Counted from the stretch's first letter, positions 29,596 to 36,373 are shown. The stretch is DNA of 42,837 nucleotides from a virus (IMGVR_UViG_3300045988_062157:1-42837); one strand, 5' to 3'. Translations and numbers: made by a program. The notes: generated from the sequence alone by a model not told the origin.

Positions 29596-29769
29596 ATGAA
29601 GGGCGCAGAAAACACCGCTGCACCGAACATGATCGTCGATGAGTTTTTTCCGAAGCATATCAGACAGCGTGAAGACTTTGCAGAAATCCGCGAGGCGGTG
29701 CGCAAATACAGGATTACGGAGCTGTATCTCACGCAGAAGTACAACAGAAAGAGAGAAAAGCATGGATAA
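29596..29769 (+). CDS. hypothetical protein (57 aa)
   Basis: AGGAGG at 29584-29589. Overlaps the holin start. Confidence 0.4.
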   Translation: MKGAENTAAPNMIVDEFFPKHIRQREDFAEIREAVRKYRITELYLTQKYNRKREKHG

Positions 29770-30220
29770 TGTAAACAATTTTAAGGCGGCTGTTACCGCT
29801 TGCGTTGCCGTCCTTACCGCCCTGTGGGGGTGGTTCGGCTGGCTGGTGGTACTGTTTGTTGTCGCGATGGCGGCGGACTACCTGACGGGCACGGCGGCGG
29901 CAATGCAGGCGGGTGCATGGAACAAAAAGATTGCATGGAAGGGCATTACGCGCAAGGTTGCACAGATTGCTATTGTAGCGGTTGCAGGCGGTGCAGATTT
30001 GCTTGTCGGAATGATTATGGGGCATCTGCCCATGGTCACACTGCCGTTTGAATACACTGTGCTGTTCTGCCCCCTCGTTGTAGTCTGGTACACGCTGACG
30101 GAACTCGGCAGCATCGTTGAAAACGCGGTTTCCCTCGGTGCACCCGTCCCGGCGTGGCTGCAAAAGGCACTTTCCGCCGCAAAGGACGCAGTGGACAAAA
30201 TCGGAGATGAGGAAAAATGA
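29762..30220 (+). CDS. holin (multi-TM, phage_holin_4-like)
   Basis: 152 aa with three to four hydrophobic helices and a charged C-terminus. Directly upstream of the amidase. Confidence 0.7.
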   Translation: MDNVNNFKAAVTACVAVLTALWGWFGWLVVLFVVAMAADYLTGTAAAMQAGAWNKKIAWKGITRKVAQIAIVAVAGGADLLVGMIMGHLPMVTLPFEYTVLFCPLVVVWYTLTELGSIVENAVSLGAPVPAWLQKALSAAKDAVDKIGDEEK

Positions 30221-30945
30221 AAATCACTTTTAAGGGCTGTAACCCGAGTAACTATCGCAAGGGCAGAGAGTTCCCGATCAACTGGATTTGCCTGCACTTT
30301 ACCGCGAACAACGGCGATACCGCACAGAATAACGCGGATTATTTCGCACGCGAAGTAGTGAAAGCGTCGGCTCACTACTTTGTAGACCCGAACGAGATTT
30401 ACCAGAGCGTAAAGGACAGCGACACGGCATGGCATTGCGGCAGGGAACGCGGCGGCAGTTACTACAACGACTGCCGCAACGCGAATTCCATCGGCATTGA
30501 AATGTGCAGCGTTATCCGAAACGGCGTGTACGTTATCCCGGAGGAAACCATGAAGCGTGCCGCAAAGCTGACCCGTGAGCTGATGGCAAAGTACCATGTG
30601 CCGGTATCGCGTGTGTGCCGTCACTACGATGTGACGCACAAGAAATGCCCCGAACCGTGGGTGCGCAATCCGCAGTTGTGGCAGAAATTCAAAACCATGC
30701 TGACAGGGAAAGAGGTTGAAGATATGACAGAAGCACAGACGCGCAAAATCGCGCAGGAAGAAATTAAGAAGGCAAACGCAAAGGTTTATGACCGCGTGCA
30801 GGACTGCCCGGCGTGGGCGCAGAACACGGTGCAGCGGCTTGTGAACAAGGGCTTTTTGCAGGGTGACGAAAACGGCAAGCTGGGTCTTACTGAAGATCTG
30901 ATGCGCGTGCTCGTTATCAATGACAGAGCGCACCTGTACGGTTAA
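30217..30945 (+). CDS. N-acetylmuramoyl-L-alanine amidase endolysin (Amidase_2/PGRP) with C-terminal wall-binding-like module
   Basis: LHFTANNGD...SAHYFVD...AWHCG...IGIEMC...CRHYDVTHKKCPEPW. The C-terminus WAQNTVQRLVNKGFLQGDENGKLGL is SLH-like. Confidence 0.85.
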   Translation: MKITFKGCNPSNYRKGREFPINWICLHFTANNGDTAQNNADYFAREVVKASAHYFVDPNEIYQSVKDSDTAWHCGRERGGSYYNDCRNANSIGIEMCSVIRNGVYVIPEETMKRAAKLTRELMAKYHVPVSRVCRHYDVTHKKCPEPWVRNPQLWQKFKTMLTGKEVEDMTEAQTRKIAQEEIKKANAKVYDRVQDCPAWAQNTVQRLVNKGFLQGDENGKLGLTEDLMRVLVINDRAHLYG

Positions 30946-30983
30946 AAACAAGACGGTATAACATACCCAAGAGGGAGGATACC

Positions 30984-31244
30984 ATGAACGAGAAAAACGA
31001 AATTCTGGCAAGTGATGTACTGTCGCTGCTGAAAAGTCAGCTGAAATTTATGAAAGCGCTTGTACTGGTGCTTATTCTGCTGCTTGCTGCGACGAACATT
31101 TATCACGTATGGCAGTGGAGCCAGTTTGACACGGTAGTCGTGGAGAACGGGGATAACGGTGGTTATGCAAATTATGTCGCCGGAGATAACACGGGAGGTG
31201 TGTATAATGGCGAGCGTAGCGGTACGGAAGAAGAAAAACGGTAA
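30984..31244 (+). CDS. single-pass membrane protein
   Basis: Central helix ALVLVLILLLAATNIY, located after the endolysin. Confidence 0.5.
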   Translation: MNEKNEILASDVLSLLKSQLKFMKALVLVLILLLAATNIYHVWQWSQFDTVVVENGDNGGYANYVAGDNTGGVYNGERSGTEEEKR

Positions 31245-31283
31245 GACCAAGGGAGTTAAGATCAAGCGGAAGGGGTAAACCGC

Positions 31284-31487
31284 ATGAACCTCAAAAAAGA
31301 GTTCACCAAGCCGGAATGCGACTATTTCCGGCGCGAGTGCAATTTTACAGACGAGGAACGCGCTGTTTTTGACCTGCGGGTCGCGGCGCGTTCTGTCGTT
31401 GAAATCTCAATGAGCCTGCACCTGAGTGAAGCAACGGTTTACAGGCGACTCAAGAACATCAAGCGCAAAATCGTGAAAGTTTTATGA
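31284..31487 (+). CDS. 67-aa sigma-70 region-4-only / LuxR-like HTH regulator
   Basis: FTDEERAVFDLRVAARSVVEISMSLHLSEATVYRRLKNIKRKI. Confidence 0.6.
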   Translation: MNLKKEFTKPECDYFRRECNFTDEERAVFDLRVAARSVVEISMSLHLSEATVYRRLKNIKRKIVKVL

Positions 31488-31497
31488 CAGGTTTATA

Positions 31498-31533
31498 CCC
31501 TCTCTGCGACGTATAATATATGTACAGGGAGGG
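31498..31533 (+). promoter_or_regulatory. hairpin occluding the Shine-Dalgarno sequence of the 31541 gene
   Basis: ccctctctg (31498-31506) pairs with cagggaggg (31525-31533) over 9 bp including one G-U. The 3' arm contains the SD. The loop contains TATAAT. Confidence 0.4.
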
Positions 31534-31540
31534 ATAGACT

Positions 31541-31891
31541 ATGGCATATCAGCAGTTTTATCCACAGTATCAACAGCAATATCCACAACAAGTAGCGCAG
31601 CGGCCACAGTACCCACAACATATAGTGCGTCCCGTGGCGAGTATCGAGGAGGCGCGGGCGGTGCAGACGGATTTTTCCGGTGCGCTGACCATCATGCCGG
31701 ACTTATCGCACGGCTACATTTATACCAAGCAGCTTAATCTGCAAACCGGATGTGCGGATTTCTCGGCGTACAGCCGCGTACAGGACGCGCCGAAGGTGCA
31801 GACGGATTATGTAGCACGGGGCGAATTTGACGAGCTTGCGCGGCGATTTAACGCGCTTTGTGACCAGTTGGGAGGCGGCAAGAATGAATAA
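31541..31891 (+). CDS. cargo protein 1: Q/Y/P-rich N-terminus, unknown function
   Basis: Translation MAYQQFYPQYQQQYPQQVAQRPQYPQH... followed by a globular part of about 85 aa. Confidence 0.6.
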   Translation: MAYQQFYPQYQQQYPQQVAQRPQYPQHIVRPVASIEEARAVQTDFSGALTIMPDLSHGYIYTKQLNLQTGCADFSAYSRVQDAPKVQTDYVARGEFDELARRFNALCDQLGGGKNE

Positions 31892-32105
31892 TCAGATGAT
31901 GCAGATAATGAATCTGATGCGGAACGGCGGCAACCCGATGACGCTGCTGAACCAGATGACCGGCAACAATCCGATGGTTTCGAGCCTCATGCAGAGTATG
32001 CAGGGCAAGAGCCCGGAGGCGCTCAGACAGATGGCAATGAACATTGCGAAAGAGCGCGGCGTGGATTTGAACCAGTTTGCGCAGCAGTTCGGTATGAAGC
32101 TGTAA
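31884..32105 (+). CDS. cargo protein 2: M/N/Q-rich 73-aa protein
   Basis: GGAGG precedes ATG 31884. Translation MNNQMMQIMNLMRNGGNPMTLLNQMTGNNPMVSSLMQSMQGK.... Confidence 0.55.
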   Translation: MNNQMMQIMNLMRNGGNPMTLLNQMTGNNPMVSSLMQSMQGKSPEALRQMAMNIAKERGVDLNQFAQQFGMKL

Positions 32106-32279
32106 CAAGCGAATTTTTTTCAGTTGTTACCCTCAAACTACTCTCAACTGTAAAAAACACGCGATTTTTTATAGTTACCTTTTCAGTTACGGAGTCTTGA
32201 TGCAAAATCCGGCGTAATTTTGTTGCGTCCGGAATGCGTACGGTTCCGACGAATATAAACTGAAAAGGAGACTAACAAT

Positions 32280-33113
32280 ATGAGTGACGATTCGATGGCT
32301 CTGGGTTATGCACTGGGGCAGGACAACAACAACTCCGGCAACGGTATGTGGGGCGGCGATGGCTCCTGGATTTTCGCTTTTCTGATTATCGCGCTGATTT
32401 TCGGCGGCGGCAACGGCTGGGGCTTCGGCGGTAACAACGGCGCGGGCTATCAGGGCGCGGTAACGCGCAGTGACCTGTGCAGCGAGTTCAACTTCAACGA
32501 CCTGTCGCGCTCGGTTCTCGGCATTCAGAGCGGCCTGTGCGACGGCTTTTACGCCATGAACAACGGTATGCTTACCGGCTTCAACACGCTTGGCAGCGCG
32601 GTTTCTAACGGCTTCCACGGCGTAGACAACGCGATTTGCCAGCTCGGCTACCAGAACGCACAGCTCATCAACGGCGTAAACCAGAACATGAACACCGGCT
32701 TTAATGGCGTGACCGCCGGTCTGACGGCACTCGGCACGCAGATGTCCGGCTGCTGCTGCGACACCCAGAGACAGATGGAACGCGGTTTCTGCGACATCAA
32801 CTACAATGCCGCTACCAACGCACGCGACATTATCCAGACGGCGCACAACGACACCGACCGCATTATTGCGCGCCTTGACCAGATGGAGAACACCCGTCAG
32901 CAGGAGAAGATCGCGGCGCTTCAGGCCGAAAACCAGGGCCTGAAATTTGCCGCATCCCAGGCCGCACAGAACACTTACCTGGTGGCGTCCCAGGCGGACC
33001 AGACGGCGAAAATCATCAACGCTATCAACCCGCCCCCTATCCCGGCCTACCAGGTGCCTAACCCCTATACCGGGAACGCCGCCTGCGGCTGCAATAGCGG
33101 CTGCGGTCTGTGA
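32280..33113 (+). CDS. cargo protein 3: Gly/Asn/Cys-rich membrane-anchored protein with coiled coil
   Basis: GGDGSWIFAFLIIALIFGGGNGWGFGGNNG hydrophobic core, CCC triplet, coiled coil (IAALQAENQGL), C-terminus PYTGNAACGCNSGCGL. RBS AAAGGAG. Confidence 0.65.
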   Translation: MSDDSMALGYALGQDNNNSGNGMWGGDGSWIFAFLIIALIFGGGNGWGFGGNNGAGYQGAVTRSDLCSEFNFNDLSRSVLGIQSGLCDGFYAMNNGMLTGFNTLGSAVSNGFHGVDNAICQLGYQNAQLINGVNQNMNTGFNGVTAGLTALGTQMSGCCCDTQRQMERGFCDINYNAATNARDIIQTAHNDTDRIIARLDQMENTRQQEKIAALQAENQGLKFAASQAAQNTYLVASQADQTAKIINAINPPPIPAYQVPNPYTGNAACGCNSGCGL

Positions 33114-33157
33114 GATACGATATTCAGGCAATGAGCCTTTGAGGAGGGCAATAAACA

Positions 33158-33541
33158 ATGTGCAATACAGTACAGAAGCTGTGCCCCAATCTGCGTATCT
33201 CTCAGGCGGTGACTTACGCGAGCGGCGTACTGACAGTAAACATTCCGGCGGGCGACTACCGGAACGGCTGCGTGTACGGAATCGTCATCGCGCAGAACAT
33301 TCCGAGTGATACGATTATCGGCGCGCCGGTGGTCATCACCATCGGCAACGGCACGGTAAACTATCCGCTGCTGAAATGCAACGGCGCTCAGGCGACAGTG
33401 TTTAATCTGGATACCCGTCACAAGTACCTTTGCCGGGTGGTCACTTCGGCAACCGGCGGCAGCTTCCGAATGCTCGGAAATTCCTGCTGCTCGCACTCGG
33501 ACGCGCTGCGCTCGATTAACGGAACGGCGGTGACAGTATGA
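33158..33541 (+). CDS. cargo protein 4: beta-rich 127-aa protein with terminal cysteines
   Basis: Cys at residues 2, 9, 38, 74, 92, 110 and 111. Alternating hydrophobic beta-like segments. Confidence 0.6.
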   Translation: MCNTVQKLCPNLRISQAVTYASGVLTVNIPAGDYRNGCVYGIVIAQNIPSDTIIGAPVVITIGNGTVNYPLLKCNGAQATVFNLDTRHKYLCRVVTSATGGSFRMLGNSCCSHSDALRSINGTAVTV

Positions 33542-34239
33542 GAAGGGGAACAATGATGCTGCTGATGCAGCGAGGCCGCAAAGAGAACGCATCCCCGGAA
33601 GAGTGGAGAATTCGCAAGATGTATCCCGAAGATCGTCACCATTACGGCGTGCGGTATCATTACGGCAACATGGAGCCGTATGATTACTATGACGAGCGCA
33701 TTCACGGCGGCGAACCGGAAATGCGTAGTTACCGCCGCTATTCTGACGGACGCTTTGCGCCCAAGAACAGTGTCGCATGGCCGAGGTATGACGAGTACCC
33801 CGATTACGAGGATGAGATGCGCCCTATTGGCTTTCGCGATGATGACGCTTATATGGGTGATACCTCGTTCGTAGGGGACAAGACGCGCGGCTCTGAGCGC
33901 TCTATGGGGTATGCAGCAAGCGCCAACGCAGGCCGCATGACTAAGAGCATGGCAGAAGAGTGGCTGCACAGCATGCAGAACGCTGATGGCACGACCGGTC
34001 CGCATTGGACTTTCGAACAGTGCAAGCAGGTAATGCAGCAGCGCGGCCTTGACTGTGACCCAGTTGAATTCTGGGTTGCAATGAATGCCGAATACTCTGA
34101 TCGTTGCGCCGTAAACGAAAAGCACGGTATGCGCAGCATTGATTTTTATGCAGACTCAGCCTGCGCTTTTTGGCTGAACGATAAGGACGCAGTAAAGGAT
34201 AAGGAAGCGGCATATTACAAATATGTCGTGAAGCATTGA
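33538..34239 (+). CDS. cargo protein 5: Tyr/Arg/Asp/Glu/Pro-rich N-terminal half, conserved-looking C-terminal domain
   Basis: ATGA coupling to the upstream gene. YPEDRHHYGVRYHYGNMEPYDYYDE..., then AEEWLHSMQNADGTTGPHWTFEQCKQVM...NAEYSDRC. Confidence 0.6.
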   Translation: MRRGTMMLLMQRGRKENASPEEWRIRKMYPEDRHHYGVRYHYGNMEPYDYYDERIHGGEPEMRSYRRYSDGRFAPKNSVAWPRYDEYPDYEDEMRPIGFRDDDAYMGDTSFVGDKTRGSERSMGYAASANAGRMTKSMAEEWLHSMQNADGTTGPHWTFEQCKQVMQQRGLDCDPVEFWVAMNAEYSDRCAVNEKHGMRSIDFYADSACAFWLNDKDAVKDKEAAYYKYVVKH

Positions 34240-34244
34240 CGAAA

Positions 34245-34271
34245 AGAGGGGGCTTCTGCCCTCTCTTTTTT
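34245..34271 (+). terminator. intrinsic terminator ending the cargo operon
   Basis: agaggg / ccctct stem followed by a run of six T. Confidence 0.7.
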
Positions 34272-34282
34272 GCTTGTGTTGG

Positions 34283-34334
34283 GTGTGGGAGTGTGTTACA
34301 ATAAACAAAGCAGCGTGGGAGTGGATGTGGGAGT
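34283..34334 (+). repeat. three direct copies of (G/A)(T/C)GTGGGAGT: putative integrase arm-type sites (P arm)
   Basis: gtgtgggagt 34283-34292, gcgtgggagt 34313-34322, atgtgggagt 34325-34334. Confidence 0.55.
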
Positions 34335-34390
34335 CTCTAAAACACGATAGCGAAATCGTCAGATATAGCGTTATATTTTACGCTTAGTCC

Positions 34391-34440
34391 TCTGCCTTAC
34401 AAGCAGAGGGTCAGCGGTTCGAGCCCGTTAACTTCCACCA
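34391..34440 (+). other. 3' portion of a tRNA-Val(TAC)-like gene (anticodon arm to CCA) = putative attP core
   Basis: tctgc-cttacaa-gcaga anticodon arm, gggtc variable loop, agcgg-ttcgagc-ccgtt T arm, aacttcc-a-cca acceptor 3' strand. No matching 5' acceptor strand or D arm upstream. Confidence 0.6.
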
Positions 34441-34445
34441 AACGA

Positions 34446-34480
34446 AAAAGTTCCTAACAGTTGTGGTTTAGGAGCTTTTT
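34446..34480. terminator. bidirectional terminator-like hairpin after the tRNA fragment
   Basis: aaaagttcctaa / ttaggagctttt. Confidence 0.55.
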
Positions 34481-34503
34481 CTCTGTTTATTTGAACTTTT
34501 TAC

Positions 34504-34532
34504 AGCGTCGCAAGGGAAGCGGCGCTTTTTTT
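34504..34532 (+). terminator. intrinsic terminator
   Basis: agcgtcgc / gcggcgct stem followed by a run of seven T. Confidence 0.6.
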
Positions 34533-34577
34533 GTTTTTGTGTGAATGCGGTTTTTTGGGGGTTTTTACGGGTGCAGG

Positions 34578-34599
34578 ATGTGGGACTAAGTGTGGGAGT
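34578..34599 (+). repeat. two further copies of the GTGGGA(G/C)T arm-type motif (P' arm)
   Basis: atgtgggact 34578-34587 and gtgtgggagt 34590-34599, in the same orientation as the P-arm copies. Confidence 0.5.
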
Positions 34600-34604
34600 G
34601 AAAA

Positions 34605-35702
34605 TCAACGAATAGAGACGACTTTTTTCTGCGCTTTCTTCCTGCTCTCGCTCGCAAAACTGAGCACCTTTAACGAGGCGTTCGTGAACGCTTCATCGGA
34701 GAGGTGCGTATAAATATGCGACGTCATGGTAATTGACTTGTGTCCCAGAAAATCCTTTGCAACGTTGATCGGCACGTCGGCGGACTGCAAATCAGTCGCG
34801 TATGTATGCCGCAGGCAGTACGGCGTGAGATCGTCAGCCACGACGGATGTCGCCGGGTCGATCGCGCCGCGTACCATCTGCGCGCCCATGTCGAGGTCAA
34901 GCGCCTGTTTAAACGAGCGCCACATCTGTTTCATGGACGTTTCGGTGTGCGGCAGGCCGGTGGTCGGCTGCGTGAAGAGATAGCCGCTGTCCTGCTTCGC
35001 CCATTTCAGACGCTTGTACAGCGGATACGGGCAAGGAACGCGACGATCACCATAGTCTGTCTTGGCGCTGTGCAGCACGATAACGTGCCCCTTGAAGTCG
35101 ATATCCTCCCATCGCGCTTTCCTGGTTTCCTCTGGACGCGCTCCTGTATAGAGCATGAACACAACCCAGAGACCGGCGCGGTGCGTGCGCGCTACGTTGA
35201 AAATATGCTTGCGTTCATCCTCTGTAATCGCGCGATGTGTGCCGTTTGTGGTCTTTGGCATAACAATACCCTCTGCCGGGTCGAAAGCCACTACGCGCGA
35301 GATACGCGCCTGCTTGAAGCCCTGCCGGATAAGGTCGCGCAGCTTGCGAGCCTGTGACTGCGATTTCCCGGCGCACTCGTTCATTATCATCTGCAAGTGG
35401 ATTGTCTGCACGTCCTTTAAGCGACGATTTCCGATTGCAGGAGAGATATAGTTCTTGACGTAGGCCTCGAGCTGATGGTAGGTCTTGTCGGAGACGTTGC
35501 CTTTTTTGTACGCTTCAAGGTATTTGAAAAACCACTTATCAACGCTCGTGTTCTCGTTCACCGCGTCTACACCTTCTTCAAGGCGGCGCTTTTTCTCGTC
35601 GACTTTCCGCCAGAGTTCGCGCTCTGTCTTTGCGGTTACGTCGTACCGTTTGCCCTTGAACGTGAAGGTCTCACGGTAATAACCGTCGGCATTCTTTTTC
35701 AT
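34605..35702 (-). CDS. int: tyrosine integrase
   Basis: GGAGG precedes the ATG at 35702 (MKKNADGYYRETF...). SAM-like N-domain. Catalytic signature TGARPEE, CLRHTYAT, GHKSITMTSHIYTH. Confidence 0.9.
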   Translation of the reverse strand: MKKNADGYYRETFTFKGKRYDVTAKTERELWRKVDEKKRRLEEGVDAVNENTSVDKWFFKYLEAYKKGNVSDKTYHQLEAYVKNYISPAIGNRRLKDVQTIHLQMIMNECAGKSQSQARKLRDLIRQGFKQARISRVVAFDPAEGIVMPKTTNGTHRAITEDERKHIFNVARTHRAGLWVVFMLYTGARPEETRKARWEDIDFKGHVIVLHSAKTDYGDRRVPCPYPLYKRLKWAKQDSGYLFTQPTTGLPHTETSMKQMWRSFKQALDLDMGAQMVRGAIDPATSVVADDLTPYCLRHTYATDLQSADVPINVAKDFLGHKSITMTSHIYTHLSDEAFTNASLKVLSFASESRKKAQKKVVSIR

Positions 35703-35809
35703 TGTTGAATTTCCTCCTATTTTGTCGTATAATAAGAGGGTAGTAACGTTCCTCAAATGTACTACCCTCGAACCGCCTGCCGGATTGCCCTCCGGTGGGC
35801 GGTTTTTGC

Positions 35810-36373
35810 TTATTGCGCGCACTTTGCGCAAGGGGTATAACCCTTGTTGGAAGCGTCTGCTATTGTGGTCTGGATCGCGTTTTCGCCTGCACAGGACTGC
35901 GACAGGTGGTAACGCTTGCCGGATGGTGTGATGTAGGCGGTAGGACTTTCAGGGTCCTCTCCATCGTCCAGATGGGCGGTATAGTCATATCCGCCGATGT
36001 CGTCCTCATCGGGTTCGAGGCCATACTCCCAACAAGCGTCTTTCCAGCCTTCTTCGTATGCTTGCTGCGTCAGATCCTCAACGGAACTTTTCTCGTTCGA
36101 CAGCTCGTTATATGCGGCTTTTTCGGCGTCAAGCTGTGACTGCAAGTCTGAAATCTGCGTTTTTAGATCGCCTATCTGCGACTGCTGCTCACTTATGGTC
36201 TCAGTTGCTTCTGCGTATTTCTGCTTTGCAGGTGCGTTTTCGTCGTTCGCGATATACAACAGTATCGCAAGCACAATTACCAACATTACCAGAAATAATA
36301 TGCTGAATGATATAGCGTATTCTTTACGGTAATACTTCGCTCGCTCTTTGTCGAGCAGATCGGTTGCTTTCAC
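35810..36373 (-). CDS. membrane-anchored coiled-coil protein with C-terminal YHxxxxC...CxxC motif (lysogeny-side moron)
   Basis: TM helix ISFSILFLVMLVIVLAILLYI, heptad-like region (QIGDLKTQISDLQSQLD), C-terminus GKRYHLSQSCAG...GYTPCAKCAQ. Confidence 0.6.
   Translation of the reverse strand: MKATDLLDKERAKYYRKEYAISFSILFLVMLVIVLAILLYIANDENAPAKQKYAEATETISEQQSQIGDLKTQISDLQSQLDAEKAAYNELSNEKSSVEDLTQQAYEEGWKDACWEYGLEPDEDDIGGYDYTAHLDDGEDPESPTAYITPSGKRYHLSQSCAGENAIQTTIADASNKGYTPCAKCAQ

Follow-up and report, generated by a model that had tools for sequence, protein, structure and literature searches.

A conserved late-region gene cassette in tailed phages of gut Clostridia with a possible stalk-and-knob product and a candidate leader RNA

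What does a phage build from a block of small cysteine-, glycine- and tyrosine-rich proteins encoded between its lysis genes and its integrase? The question is raised by IMGVR_UViG_3300045988_062157:1-42837, a viral DNA stretch of 42,837 nucleotides (nt) that is referred to here, at its full length, as the window. Positions 31,284 to 34,239 hold six genes, named g1 to g6, and a further small gene, tm86, can precede them; together they are called the cassette. An earlier note, made from the sequence alone, had taken the six genes for a lysogenic-conversion operon that modifies the surface of the host cell or spore. Comparison with related loci establishes the cassette as a conserved, mobile and accessory unit of the late region, very widespread in tailed phages of gut Clostridia, and the genomic evidence leans away from the spore-surface hypothesis. 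As for the product, structural models make a stalk-and-knob assembly of the late infection cycle a possible reading, which is put forward tentatively.

All six open reading frames (ORFs) that had been described are present on the plus strand, each with a Shine-Dalgarno (SD) sequence 6-12 nt 5' of its start; the starts of g3 and g6 are refined to 31884 and 33553, respectively. Because database searches returned many homologues for every one of them, g1 to g6 are regarded as real genes. Their conservation was followed in two samples. The first comprises 80 bacterial genome loci that encode a g4 relative, all from gut Clostridia or metagenome-assembled genomes (MAGs), in which each gene was counted by iterative searches. 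The second comprises 80 relatives of the window phage from IMG/VR (L094-L173), a database in which at least 552 contigs encode a g4 relative. Across the bacterial loci, the window genes recur at 30-55% identity with order and strand unchanged, and where a gene seems to be missing, another family of like size stands at its position (F7 for g3, F5 for g5, F4 for g6). The order in the IMG/VR relatives is holin, amidase, tm86 in some, g1, g2 to g6 and integrase. The constant core consists of g2, found in 69 of the 80 bacterial loci and always 5' of g4, and g4 itself; a beta-sandwich protein of about 130 residues (aa) and then a Tyr/Arg/Gly-rich protein nearly always follow. At the 5' end, g1, tm86 and, in other lineages, the Cys-His-Asp peptidase-like F6 are optional. 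The possibility that the cassette is a random set of morons was rejected, given the conserved order across loci. Hosts named in the 80 records are Oscillospiraceae, Acutalibacteraceae, Lachnospiraceae, Ruminococcus and Christensenellales, the names being those of the MAG records. Isolates are among the genome hits as well, namely Anaerotruncus colihominis JM4-15, Acutalibacter sp. 1XD8-33 and Pseudoflavonifractor sp. 524-17.

The position of the cassette is informative in its own right. Among the IMG/VR relatives, its identity is 68-91%, whereas the adjacent integrases are unrelated, with a median of 33%. The cassette thus goes with the lysis side of the junction, and the integration modules beside it have been swapped repeatedly. 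The usual 5' neighbour is an endolysin or holin gene. Three other arrangements were found. In Dulem virus 35, the cassette is flanked by the minor capsid gene and the scaffold/major capsid genes, with the phage's own lysis genes and integrase 15 kb away. The set found there runs F6, an XhlA-like protein (PHROG 937, 'hemolysin'), tm86, g1, a terminator, g2, g3, g4, F5 and F4, so that tm86 has been relocated into the head region together with the cassette. The cassette of bajarodcaudo virus 2 is likewise inserted between minor capsid and scaffold/major capsid genes, and in two genome loci the cassette adjoins Phage_min_cap2. In Dulem virus 36, g2 begins 10 nt 3' of the receptor-binding protein gene; nearly all genes of this phage are on one strand, and it has its own polymerase/primase, RecA, exonuclease and ligase. 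Lastly, bajarodcaudo virus 5 carries the cassette after the lysis genes and has its own replication genes. The depositors' annotation of Dulem virus 36 and bajarodcaudo virus 5 lists no integrase or repressor, an unrecognised integrase being possible. The cassette is co-oriented with the late genes in every case and never lies in the early or lysogeny region.

These arrangements bear directly on lysogenic conversion. According to this explanation, the cassette would be expressed from the prophage, perhaps in the sporulating mother cell, and its Cys-, Tyr- and Gly-rich products would form a coat, exosporium or appendage layer on the host cell or spore. The window and most of its relatives do have the cassette in the slot between endolysin and integrase or attachment (att) site, closed by a terminator, which the earlier note had recognised as a classical place for morons. 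The slot is not a general property of the cassette, however, as the carriers with head-region copies, with a copy behind a receptor-binding protein gene or with no annotated integrase demonstrate. It is mainly the constant late orientation, together with the absence from the early and lysogeny regions, that has moved the interpretation away from conversion. Homologues in MAGs of Subdoligranulum, Agathobacter, Pseudobutyrivibrio and Christensenellales, which we take to be non-sporulating lineages, point weakly in the same direction, since binning makes such host evidence weak.

The regulatory elements of the cassette are relevant to the same explanation. The product of g1 matches Pfam GerE (PF00196) over residues 21-63 with 25.6 bits against a gathering score of 23.5, whereas Sigma70_r4_2 stays below its cut-off; its PHROG matches are to a transcriptional regulator and a sigma factor. 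The 67-aa helix-turn-helix (HTH) protein that had been described as sigma region 4 only thus stands as an HTH, with GerE as the family above threshold. It is presumed to be the cassette regulator and was found 5' of g2 in 43 of the 80 bacterial loci. The tm86 protein has a single central hydrophobic helix (FMKALVLVLILLLAA), and its homologues lie directly 5' of g1 in 14 of 80 genome loci and 10 of 80 IMG/VR relatives. Sigma-A-like promoters in the relatives are enriched only 5' of tm86 (60% vs 2.5% of controls). Terminators occur 5' of g2 in 28% of the loci and between g4 and g5 in 24%; the latter, a terminator-like hairpin followed by a T run, are absent from the window. In the relatives, such a terminator suggests attenuation, by which g4 would be produced in excess over g5 and g6. 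The window does not demonstrate the proposed separate transcription unit: it has its own HTH gene and a 3' terminator, for which the scan gives 34241-34270 in place of 34245-34271, but no promoter or terminator was found 5' of the cassette. In detail, the scan of the window detected no sigma-70-like promoter and no terminator from the amidase gene to g1, nor before g2 or g4, and between the amidase gene and g4 there is only a lone TATAAT at 31512-31517. A GerE-type HTH gene of its own and strong promoters 5' of tm86 are what an independently expressed prophage cargo might have. Against conversion during sporulation, the promoters seen in relatives look sigma-A-like and not sigma-E- or sigma-K-like, although no formal sigma-E/K scan was made.

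The most widespread cassette protein is g4. Among 8000 candidates scored, 7120 homologues were obtained at E <= 0.001, counted as clusters at 90% identity, none of them functionally named; Pfam matches were limited to one chimeric-looking protein from a short contig (P0025). The match to PHROG 16490 (E = 1e-50) likewise leads to a family without known function. The protein contains 14% Gly, 12% Asn and 10 Cys. Its layout comprises an acidic conserved N-terminus (GYALGQD), a Gly-flanked hydrophobic segment (WIFAFLIIALIF, residues 30-41), a long Asn/Gly/Gln-rich helix, a coiled coil and a Pro/Cys-rich tail, and the long helix bears a CCC-TQR-ERGF motif that is invariant in alignments A1 and A5. 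The AlphaFold2 (AF2) model predicts a hydrophobic helix of 12 residues (30-41), a single helix over residues 74-249 and a disordered Pro/Cys tail; its pLDDT is 56, and values above 80 are reached for residues 180-250 only. In the homologues P0047, P0079, P0093 and P0117, the unit LGYQ..Q...CCC(D/E)TQR..GVN is present twice; the helical region of g4 thus consists of a repeat capable of duplication.

The shape predicted for g4 invites a role at the membrane. An accessory function in lysis or egress would have tm86 and g4 act on the membrane after holin and endolysin, with the soluble proteins as cofactors or as released cargo. Endolysin and holin genes are, as described above, the commonest 5' neighbours; small membrane proteins (tm86 and the XhlA-like protein of PHROG 937) accompany the cassette in Dulem virus 35; the modelled combination of a hydrophobic helix with a helix of about 175 residues resembles that of spanins or of the phiX174 H protein; and cargo without signal peptides would be suited to release by lysis. 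Nevertheless, Dulem virus 35, Dulem virus 36 and bajarodcaudo virus 2 have the cassette apart from their lysis genes, and a lysis accessory is weakened as the main explanation for this reason. Moreover, no lipoprotein partner was found, g4 has no spanin or XhlA match in Pfam or PHROG, and monoderm hosts need no spanin. To our knowledge, neither a beta-sandwich knob nor low-complexity proteins have a role in lysis. All things considered, this explanation is rather unlikely.

A conserved structured RNA lies 5' of g4. This leader of g4 folds with -31.5 kcal/mol (z = -2.7) into an outer helix between an anti-SD (CCUUUUCAGU) and the SD region (ACUGAAAAGG), the latter overlapping the SD sequence. 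Inside lie a hairpin with the conserved loop CUUGA..AAAA and a GC-rich hairpin, which is followed by the A-rich AAUAUAAA. A covariance model (R1) was seeded from 14 g4 leaders with the structure given by hand. It matches 20 genome or contig loci, six of them outside the seed, and 63 of the 80 IMG/VR relatives, and all matches end at the g4 start codon. In the R1 alignment, which as a model-fitted alignment somewhat favours the structure, 82% of the cells pair, compared with 69% in shuffles and at most 49% when the partners are slid, and 17 of 23 pairs show compensatory changes. RNAalifold predicted no pairs from the raw MAFFT alignment of the leader, and A/T-rich stems misled a simple hairpin finder. 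In other lineages, shorter leaders retain the GC-rich palindrome only. Perfect palindromes of at least 12 nt, centred about 35-45 nt 5' of g4, occur in 25% of the loci vs 2.6% of shuffles; they differ in sequence among loci and form helix P3 of the leader RNA, and may thus act as RNA rather than as an operator for g1. A search of positions 30000-36000 against Rfam found no family and only a chance match to GcvB (E = 0.92). Judged from these comparisons of sequence, the conclusion that g4 is under conserved translational control is solid, and 32178-32282 is a candidate for a new, SD-sequestering cis-regulatory RNA. In Dulem virus 33, the leader RNA position between the homologues of g3 and g4 is occupied by a gene on the opposite, minus strand that is annotated as endonuclease (L088, 6073-6624), perhaps a homing endonuclease that has inserted there.

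Where g4 could supply a stalk, g5 could supply the knob. It is the most conserved cassette protein among the IMG/VR relatives (median identity 91%) and was detected in 39 of the 80 bacterial loci. Of its seven cysteines, which include C2, C9, C110 and C111, the last three are kept in at least 90% of 206 homologues. AF2 predicts an eight-strand beta-sandwich (pLDDT 81). The protein has no Pfam match, and Foldseek against PDB returned nothing below E = 0.01. Against BFVD, the model retrieved its own homologues and, after these, the knobs at the C-terminal end of tail-fibre proteins (E 1e-5 to 1e-3, TM ~0.45-0.55). One protein annotated with DUF7841, the domain of g6, is also among the BFVD matches, and there are hints from these models that g5-like and g6-like parts can be fused.

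At the position of g5, 27 loci carry F5, which resembles BclA_C below the Pfam threshold (32.7 vs 38 bits, best E = 8e-8); E <= 0.01 is reached by 5 of the 27 members, and F5 also weakly matches a collagen-like minor tail PHROG. This BclA_C-like protein is one of several points that favour a spore-surface layer. The compositions resemble those of coat proteins, assembly in the mother cell needs no signal peptides, and the subunits of Ena appendages are disulfide-linked, a property that the terminal cysteines of g5 might recall. Homology between g5 and F5 was nevertheless rejected (hhalign probability 0.1%), and an Ena or BclA fold for g5 is rejected for now, as neither is among its 50 best PDB matches. 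Furthermore, no window protein matches a coat, exosporium or Ena family (BclA_C, DUF3992, CotY/ExsY) in Pfam or NCBIfam. The unusual compositions in the earlier note are borne out for g2 to g6 by residue counts. Of the surface hypothesis itself, weak hints are left in the GerE-type g1 and in F5, and the head-region copies and the two carriers without annotated integrase speak against it. Overall, lysogenic conversion is considered unlikely.

The remaining products accompany the putative stalk and knob. The C-terminal half of g6 is DUF7841 (PF25223; 101.8 bits vs a gathering score of 25.2, E = 3.5e-29). Its N-terminal half is rich in Tyr, Arg, Asp and Glu and includes the motif YSDGRFAPK; the whole protein has 19 Tyr, and Asp, Arg and Glu account for 8-9% each. 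There are 157 homologues (alignment A7), all 120 among the matches listed carrying PF25223, and g6 was detected in 26 of the 80 bacterial loci. A database protein 100% identical to g6 begins at M6, which corresponds to 33553. Other lineages replace g6 by the Tyr/Arg/Gly-rich F4, and the motif DGRFAPK is common to F4 and the N-terminal half of g6. A protein of about 108 aa with an HExxH motif (Peptidase_M78/IrrE-like, PHROG 1233) often lies 3' of F4 (L032:7940-8266 and 13 further loci); its place is taken in 11 loci by F12, also of about 108 aa. F6, of about 128 aa, is absent from the window and occurs in 27 loci (including L018:1447-1830, L043:4715-5104 and L086:6382-6780), usually between g1 and g2. 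It belongs to PHROG 3754, a family without assigned function, and with its invariant Cys18, His99 and Asp110 looks like a small papain-type hydrolase or transglutaminase.

The core protein g2 (15% Gln, 8% Tyr) consists of a Q/Y/P-rich N-terminus, a conserved domain of about 55 aa (RPVxSxEEAxA..DFxG....PD..HGxIYTK) and a C-terminal helix. Its homologues form 813 representative clusters at E <= 0.001, from which alignment A3 was built, and no match was found in Pfam, PHROG or PDB. The neighbouring g3 contains 18% Met, 14% Asn and 12% Gln. Its ATG overlaps the 3' end of g2 by 8 nt, which suggests that g3 is translationally coupled to g2; an overlap also joins g5 and g6 and suggests coupled translation there. 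In the bacterial sample, g3 was detected in 40 loci, and F7 (PHROG 22984), of like size and composition, has the same position in 22 more.

A 9-bp hairpin at 31498-31533 that occludes the SD sequence of g2 had been proposed as a regulator of its translation. The hairpin is real and larger (31490-31540; -27.1 kcal/mol, z = -4.78, none of 200 shuffles equally stable), with the TATAAT box in its loop and the g2 SD sequence inside its 3' arm. It was rejected as a conserved regulator and is given little weight because it is kept in 4 of 79 IMG/VR loci, the closest relatives only. Transcripts started from this TATAAT would lose the 5' arm and become translatable, and read-through transcripts would stay silent. 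The distant loci L022, L017, L011 and L054 have similar hairpins 5' of g2, whose loops hold a -10-like box. Close relatives have an extra ORF of 51 aa between g1 and g2, TAATG-coupled to g2 (L082, 7861-8016), and the hairpin occupies its place in the window.

Known families contribute little to the identification of the cassette. Pfam, NCBIfam, PHROGs and PADLOC, applied to the six proteins and the variant families, returned only GerE, DUF7841 and PHROGs without function, PADLOC giving only weak noise from HTH and coiled-coil models. Against PDB sequences, profiles of g2, g4, g5, g6, F5 and F6 found nothing below E = 0.2. The cassette DNA matched GenBank phages only in short patches of unannotated faecal phage contigs. 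Literature searches on DUF7841, on BclA/exosporium or endospore appendages in connection with prophages, and on gut phages and sporulation yielded no description of the cassette. The earlier impression that no product has a recognisable virion or lysis function is thus upheld, and no defence family was matched either.

One could conclude that the products are not structural at all and serve inside the cell, in host takeover, in anti-defence or as a membrane-bound condensate of low-complexity proteins (Q/Y/P-, M/N/Q- and Y/R/D/G-rich). Low-complexity regions are present in four of the six proteins, no known structural family is matched, and the cassette is accessory and mobile. Defence and counter-defence models of PADLOC found no match, however; the long helix and a beta-sandwich that is both ordered and highly conserved are indicative of a defined assembly, and the cassette is placed late and not early. 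An intracellular, non-structural role is hence very doubtful.

The reading that we prefer, a stalk-and-knob assembly, would unite these observations as follows. The cassette would act in the lytic cycle, its proteins being produced and put together in the cytoplasm at a late stage of infection; cytoplasmic manufacture is assumed because no signal peptide-like N-terminus or lipobox was recognisable in any cassette protein. Through its helix of about 175 residues, g4 would oligomerise into a stalk, held by the Gly-flanked hydrophobic segment near its N-terminus, and the Cys-bearing ends of g5 would dock on the Pro/Cys-rich tail of g4 as a knob; in other lineages, the BclA_C-like F5 would be the knob. 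Partners or chaperones would be provided by g6, g2 and the Met/Gln-rich g3. The assembly could exit at lysis with the progeny, on or in whose virions it would serve as an accessory fibre or a pilot-type protein. Its expression would be gated by g1, where present, and by the leader RNA that sequesters the ribosome-binding site of g4. Conserved synteny, a late-gene context in four arrangements, the knob-like fold of g5 and the long helix of g4 are in favour of this model.

Several points weigh against it. The contact between g4 and g5, the oligomeric state of g4 and the chaperone roles are pure inference, and the carriers are all uncultured or unstudied. The g4 model is of low confidence; the similarity of g5 to fibre knobs is modest, with no solved structure matching. 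Receptor-binding tips usually diversify, and the conservation of g5 is the highest in the cassette. With its hydrophobic N-terminus flanked by Gly, g4 would also fit a membrane protein. Virion genes do not usually come with a dedicated HTH regulator, sigma-A-like promoters as at tm86, internal terminators and an SD-sequestering leader, all of which would better fit an autonomous moron. The model is therefore offered as one that may well prove wrong. With the same reserve, the cassette, which thousands of phages of gut Clostridia carry, might represent an unrecognised phage system: a structure of stalk-and-knob or coat-like type that assembles itself through Cys links, has no relation to known modules for virion, lysis, defence or conversion and is equipped with its own HTH and a new class of SD-sequestering leader. 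Such a structure would possibly coat progeny, lysis debris or spores and so favour persistence in the gut or transmission there.

The phages of gut Clostridia, most of them uncultured, are abundant and rich in unannotated genes. With g4 alone accounting for more than 7000 clusters, the function of the cassette product would annotate thousands of genes at once and could show by what means these phages persist, attach or spread in the gut. In addition, the leader is a testable candidate for a new cis-regulatory RNA.

The features of the locus are collected in Table 1. The holin and amidase genes that the earlier note had placed on the 5' flank were identified as Phage_holin_4_1 and Amidase_2. 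The rest of the window is a late region of siphovirus type, with terminase, portal, minor head, major head, tape measure and tail fibre genes. Between the cassette terminator and the integrase, a stretch at about 34389-34441 (plus strand) resembles by eye a 3' tRNA portion that runs from an anticodon arm with TAC (Val) through the T arm to the acceptor end and CCA, and this location fits an att site; ARAGORN found no complete tRNA in the window. Beside the integrase, the product of a 187-aa ORF (35810-36373, minus strand) has a hydrophobic helix at its N-terminus, a coiled coil and, C-terminally, a motif with a Cys pair (SCAGE...TPCAKC). Its weak match to a PHROG 'Rz-like spanin' (1.5e-7) is probably due to the coiled coil, and the protein may be a membrane protein of the lysogeny side, such as an exclusion factor.

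Table 1. Coordinates of the cassette and its flanking features in the window.
Feature	Position	Strand	Basis
Holin (Phage_holin_4_1) and Amidase_2 endolysin, directly 5' of the cassette	29639..30945	+	Pfam/PHROG
tm86, optional first cassette gene, 86 aa	30984..31244	+	ORF, hydropathy
g1, 67 aa, GerE/LuxR-type HTH (sigma region-4-like)	31284..31487	+	Pfam, PHROG
RNA hairpin, TATAAT box in loop, g2 SD in 3' arm	31490..31540	+	Fold energy vs shuffles
g2, 116 aa, core gene	31541..31891	+	ORF, homologues, synteny
g3, 73 aa, Met/Asn/Gln-rich	31884..32105	+	ORF, composition
Structured leader RNA of g4	32178..32282	+	Fold, covariance model
g4, 277 aa, core gene	32280..33113	+	PHROG 16490, homologues, AF2
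g5, 127 aa, predicted eight-strand beta-sandwich	33158..33541	+	Homologues, AF2, Foldseek
g6, 228 aa from 33553 (ORF opens at 33538, overlapping the g5 stop)	33553..34239	+	PF25223, homologues
Intrinsic terminator, 13-pair stem then T run, closing the cassette	34241..34270	+	Terminator scan
Tyrosine integrase, convergent with the cassette	34605..35831	-	Pfam/PHROG

In its placement and flanking signals, the cassette fits the class of accessory, moron-type elements of phage late regions; its content matches no known system. Like the morons of lambda (bor, lom) and of HK97-type phages, it consists of accessory genes at module boundaries of the late region, its position varies among phages, the copy in the window is closed by a terminator, and relatives have sigma-A-like promoters. 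Unlike them, it is a block of five to nine genes that is conserved across very distant phages, including some without an annotated integrase. Spore surface fibres of Bacillus and Clostridioides (the C-terminal domain of BclA, Ena with DUF3992, the Cys-rich ExsY/CotY/CdeC) share with it a small beta-sandwich with cysteines in the terminal regions, Gly/Tyr/Cys-rich partners and a presumably cytoplasmic assembly without signal peptides, and a BclA_C-like F5 stands at the g5 position elsewhere. They differ in that the window proteins match none of these families, g5 is unrelated to F5, and the cassette is carried by phages, in linkage with late genes.

The short Gly-rich hydrophobic segment of g4, followed by a long Gln/Asn-rich helix and usually adjoining lysis genes, is reminiscent of the i-spanin Rz, of PBSX XhlA and of the phiX174 DNA pilot protein H. 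Sequence relation to these proteins is lacking (a match to protein H at E = 0.5 belongs to g6 and not to g4), and the invariant CCC motif, the Cys/Pro tail and the monoderm host set g4 apart. From Rz/Rz1 spanins, the cassette also differs by the lack of a lipobox partner and of a spanin PHROG match and, in three phages, by its separation from the lysis genes. The g5 model can be superposed on knobs of tail or head fibres (T7 gp17-type tips, collagen-like fibre ends), and one phage has the cassette behind its receptor-binding gene; g5 is, in contrast, a free-standing protein of 127 aa in which no shaft or virion-attachment domain was recognised, and it is strongly conserved rather than hypervariable. 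Finally, the g4 leader differs from known SD-sequestering leaders in having no Rfam match and in its intercistronic location inside a phage operon. Like riboswitch platforms, RNA thermometers and the autogenous leaders of ribosomal proteins, it nonetheless hides the SD sequence in an outer anti-SD:SD helix, which encloses two hairpins and is backed by covariation.

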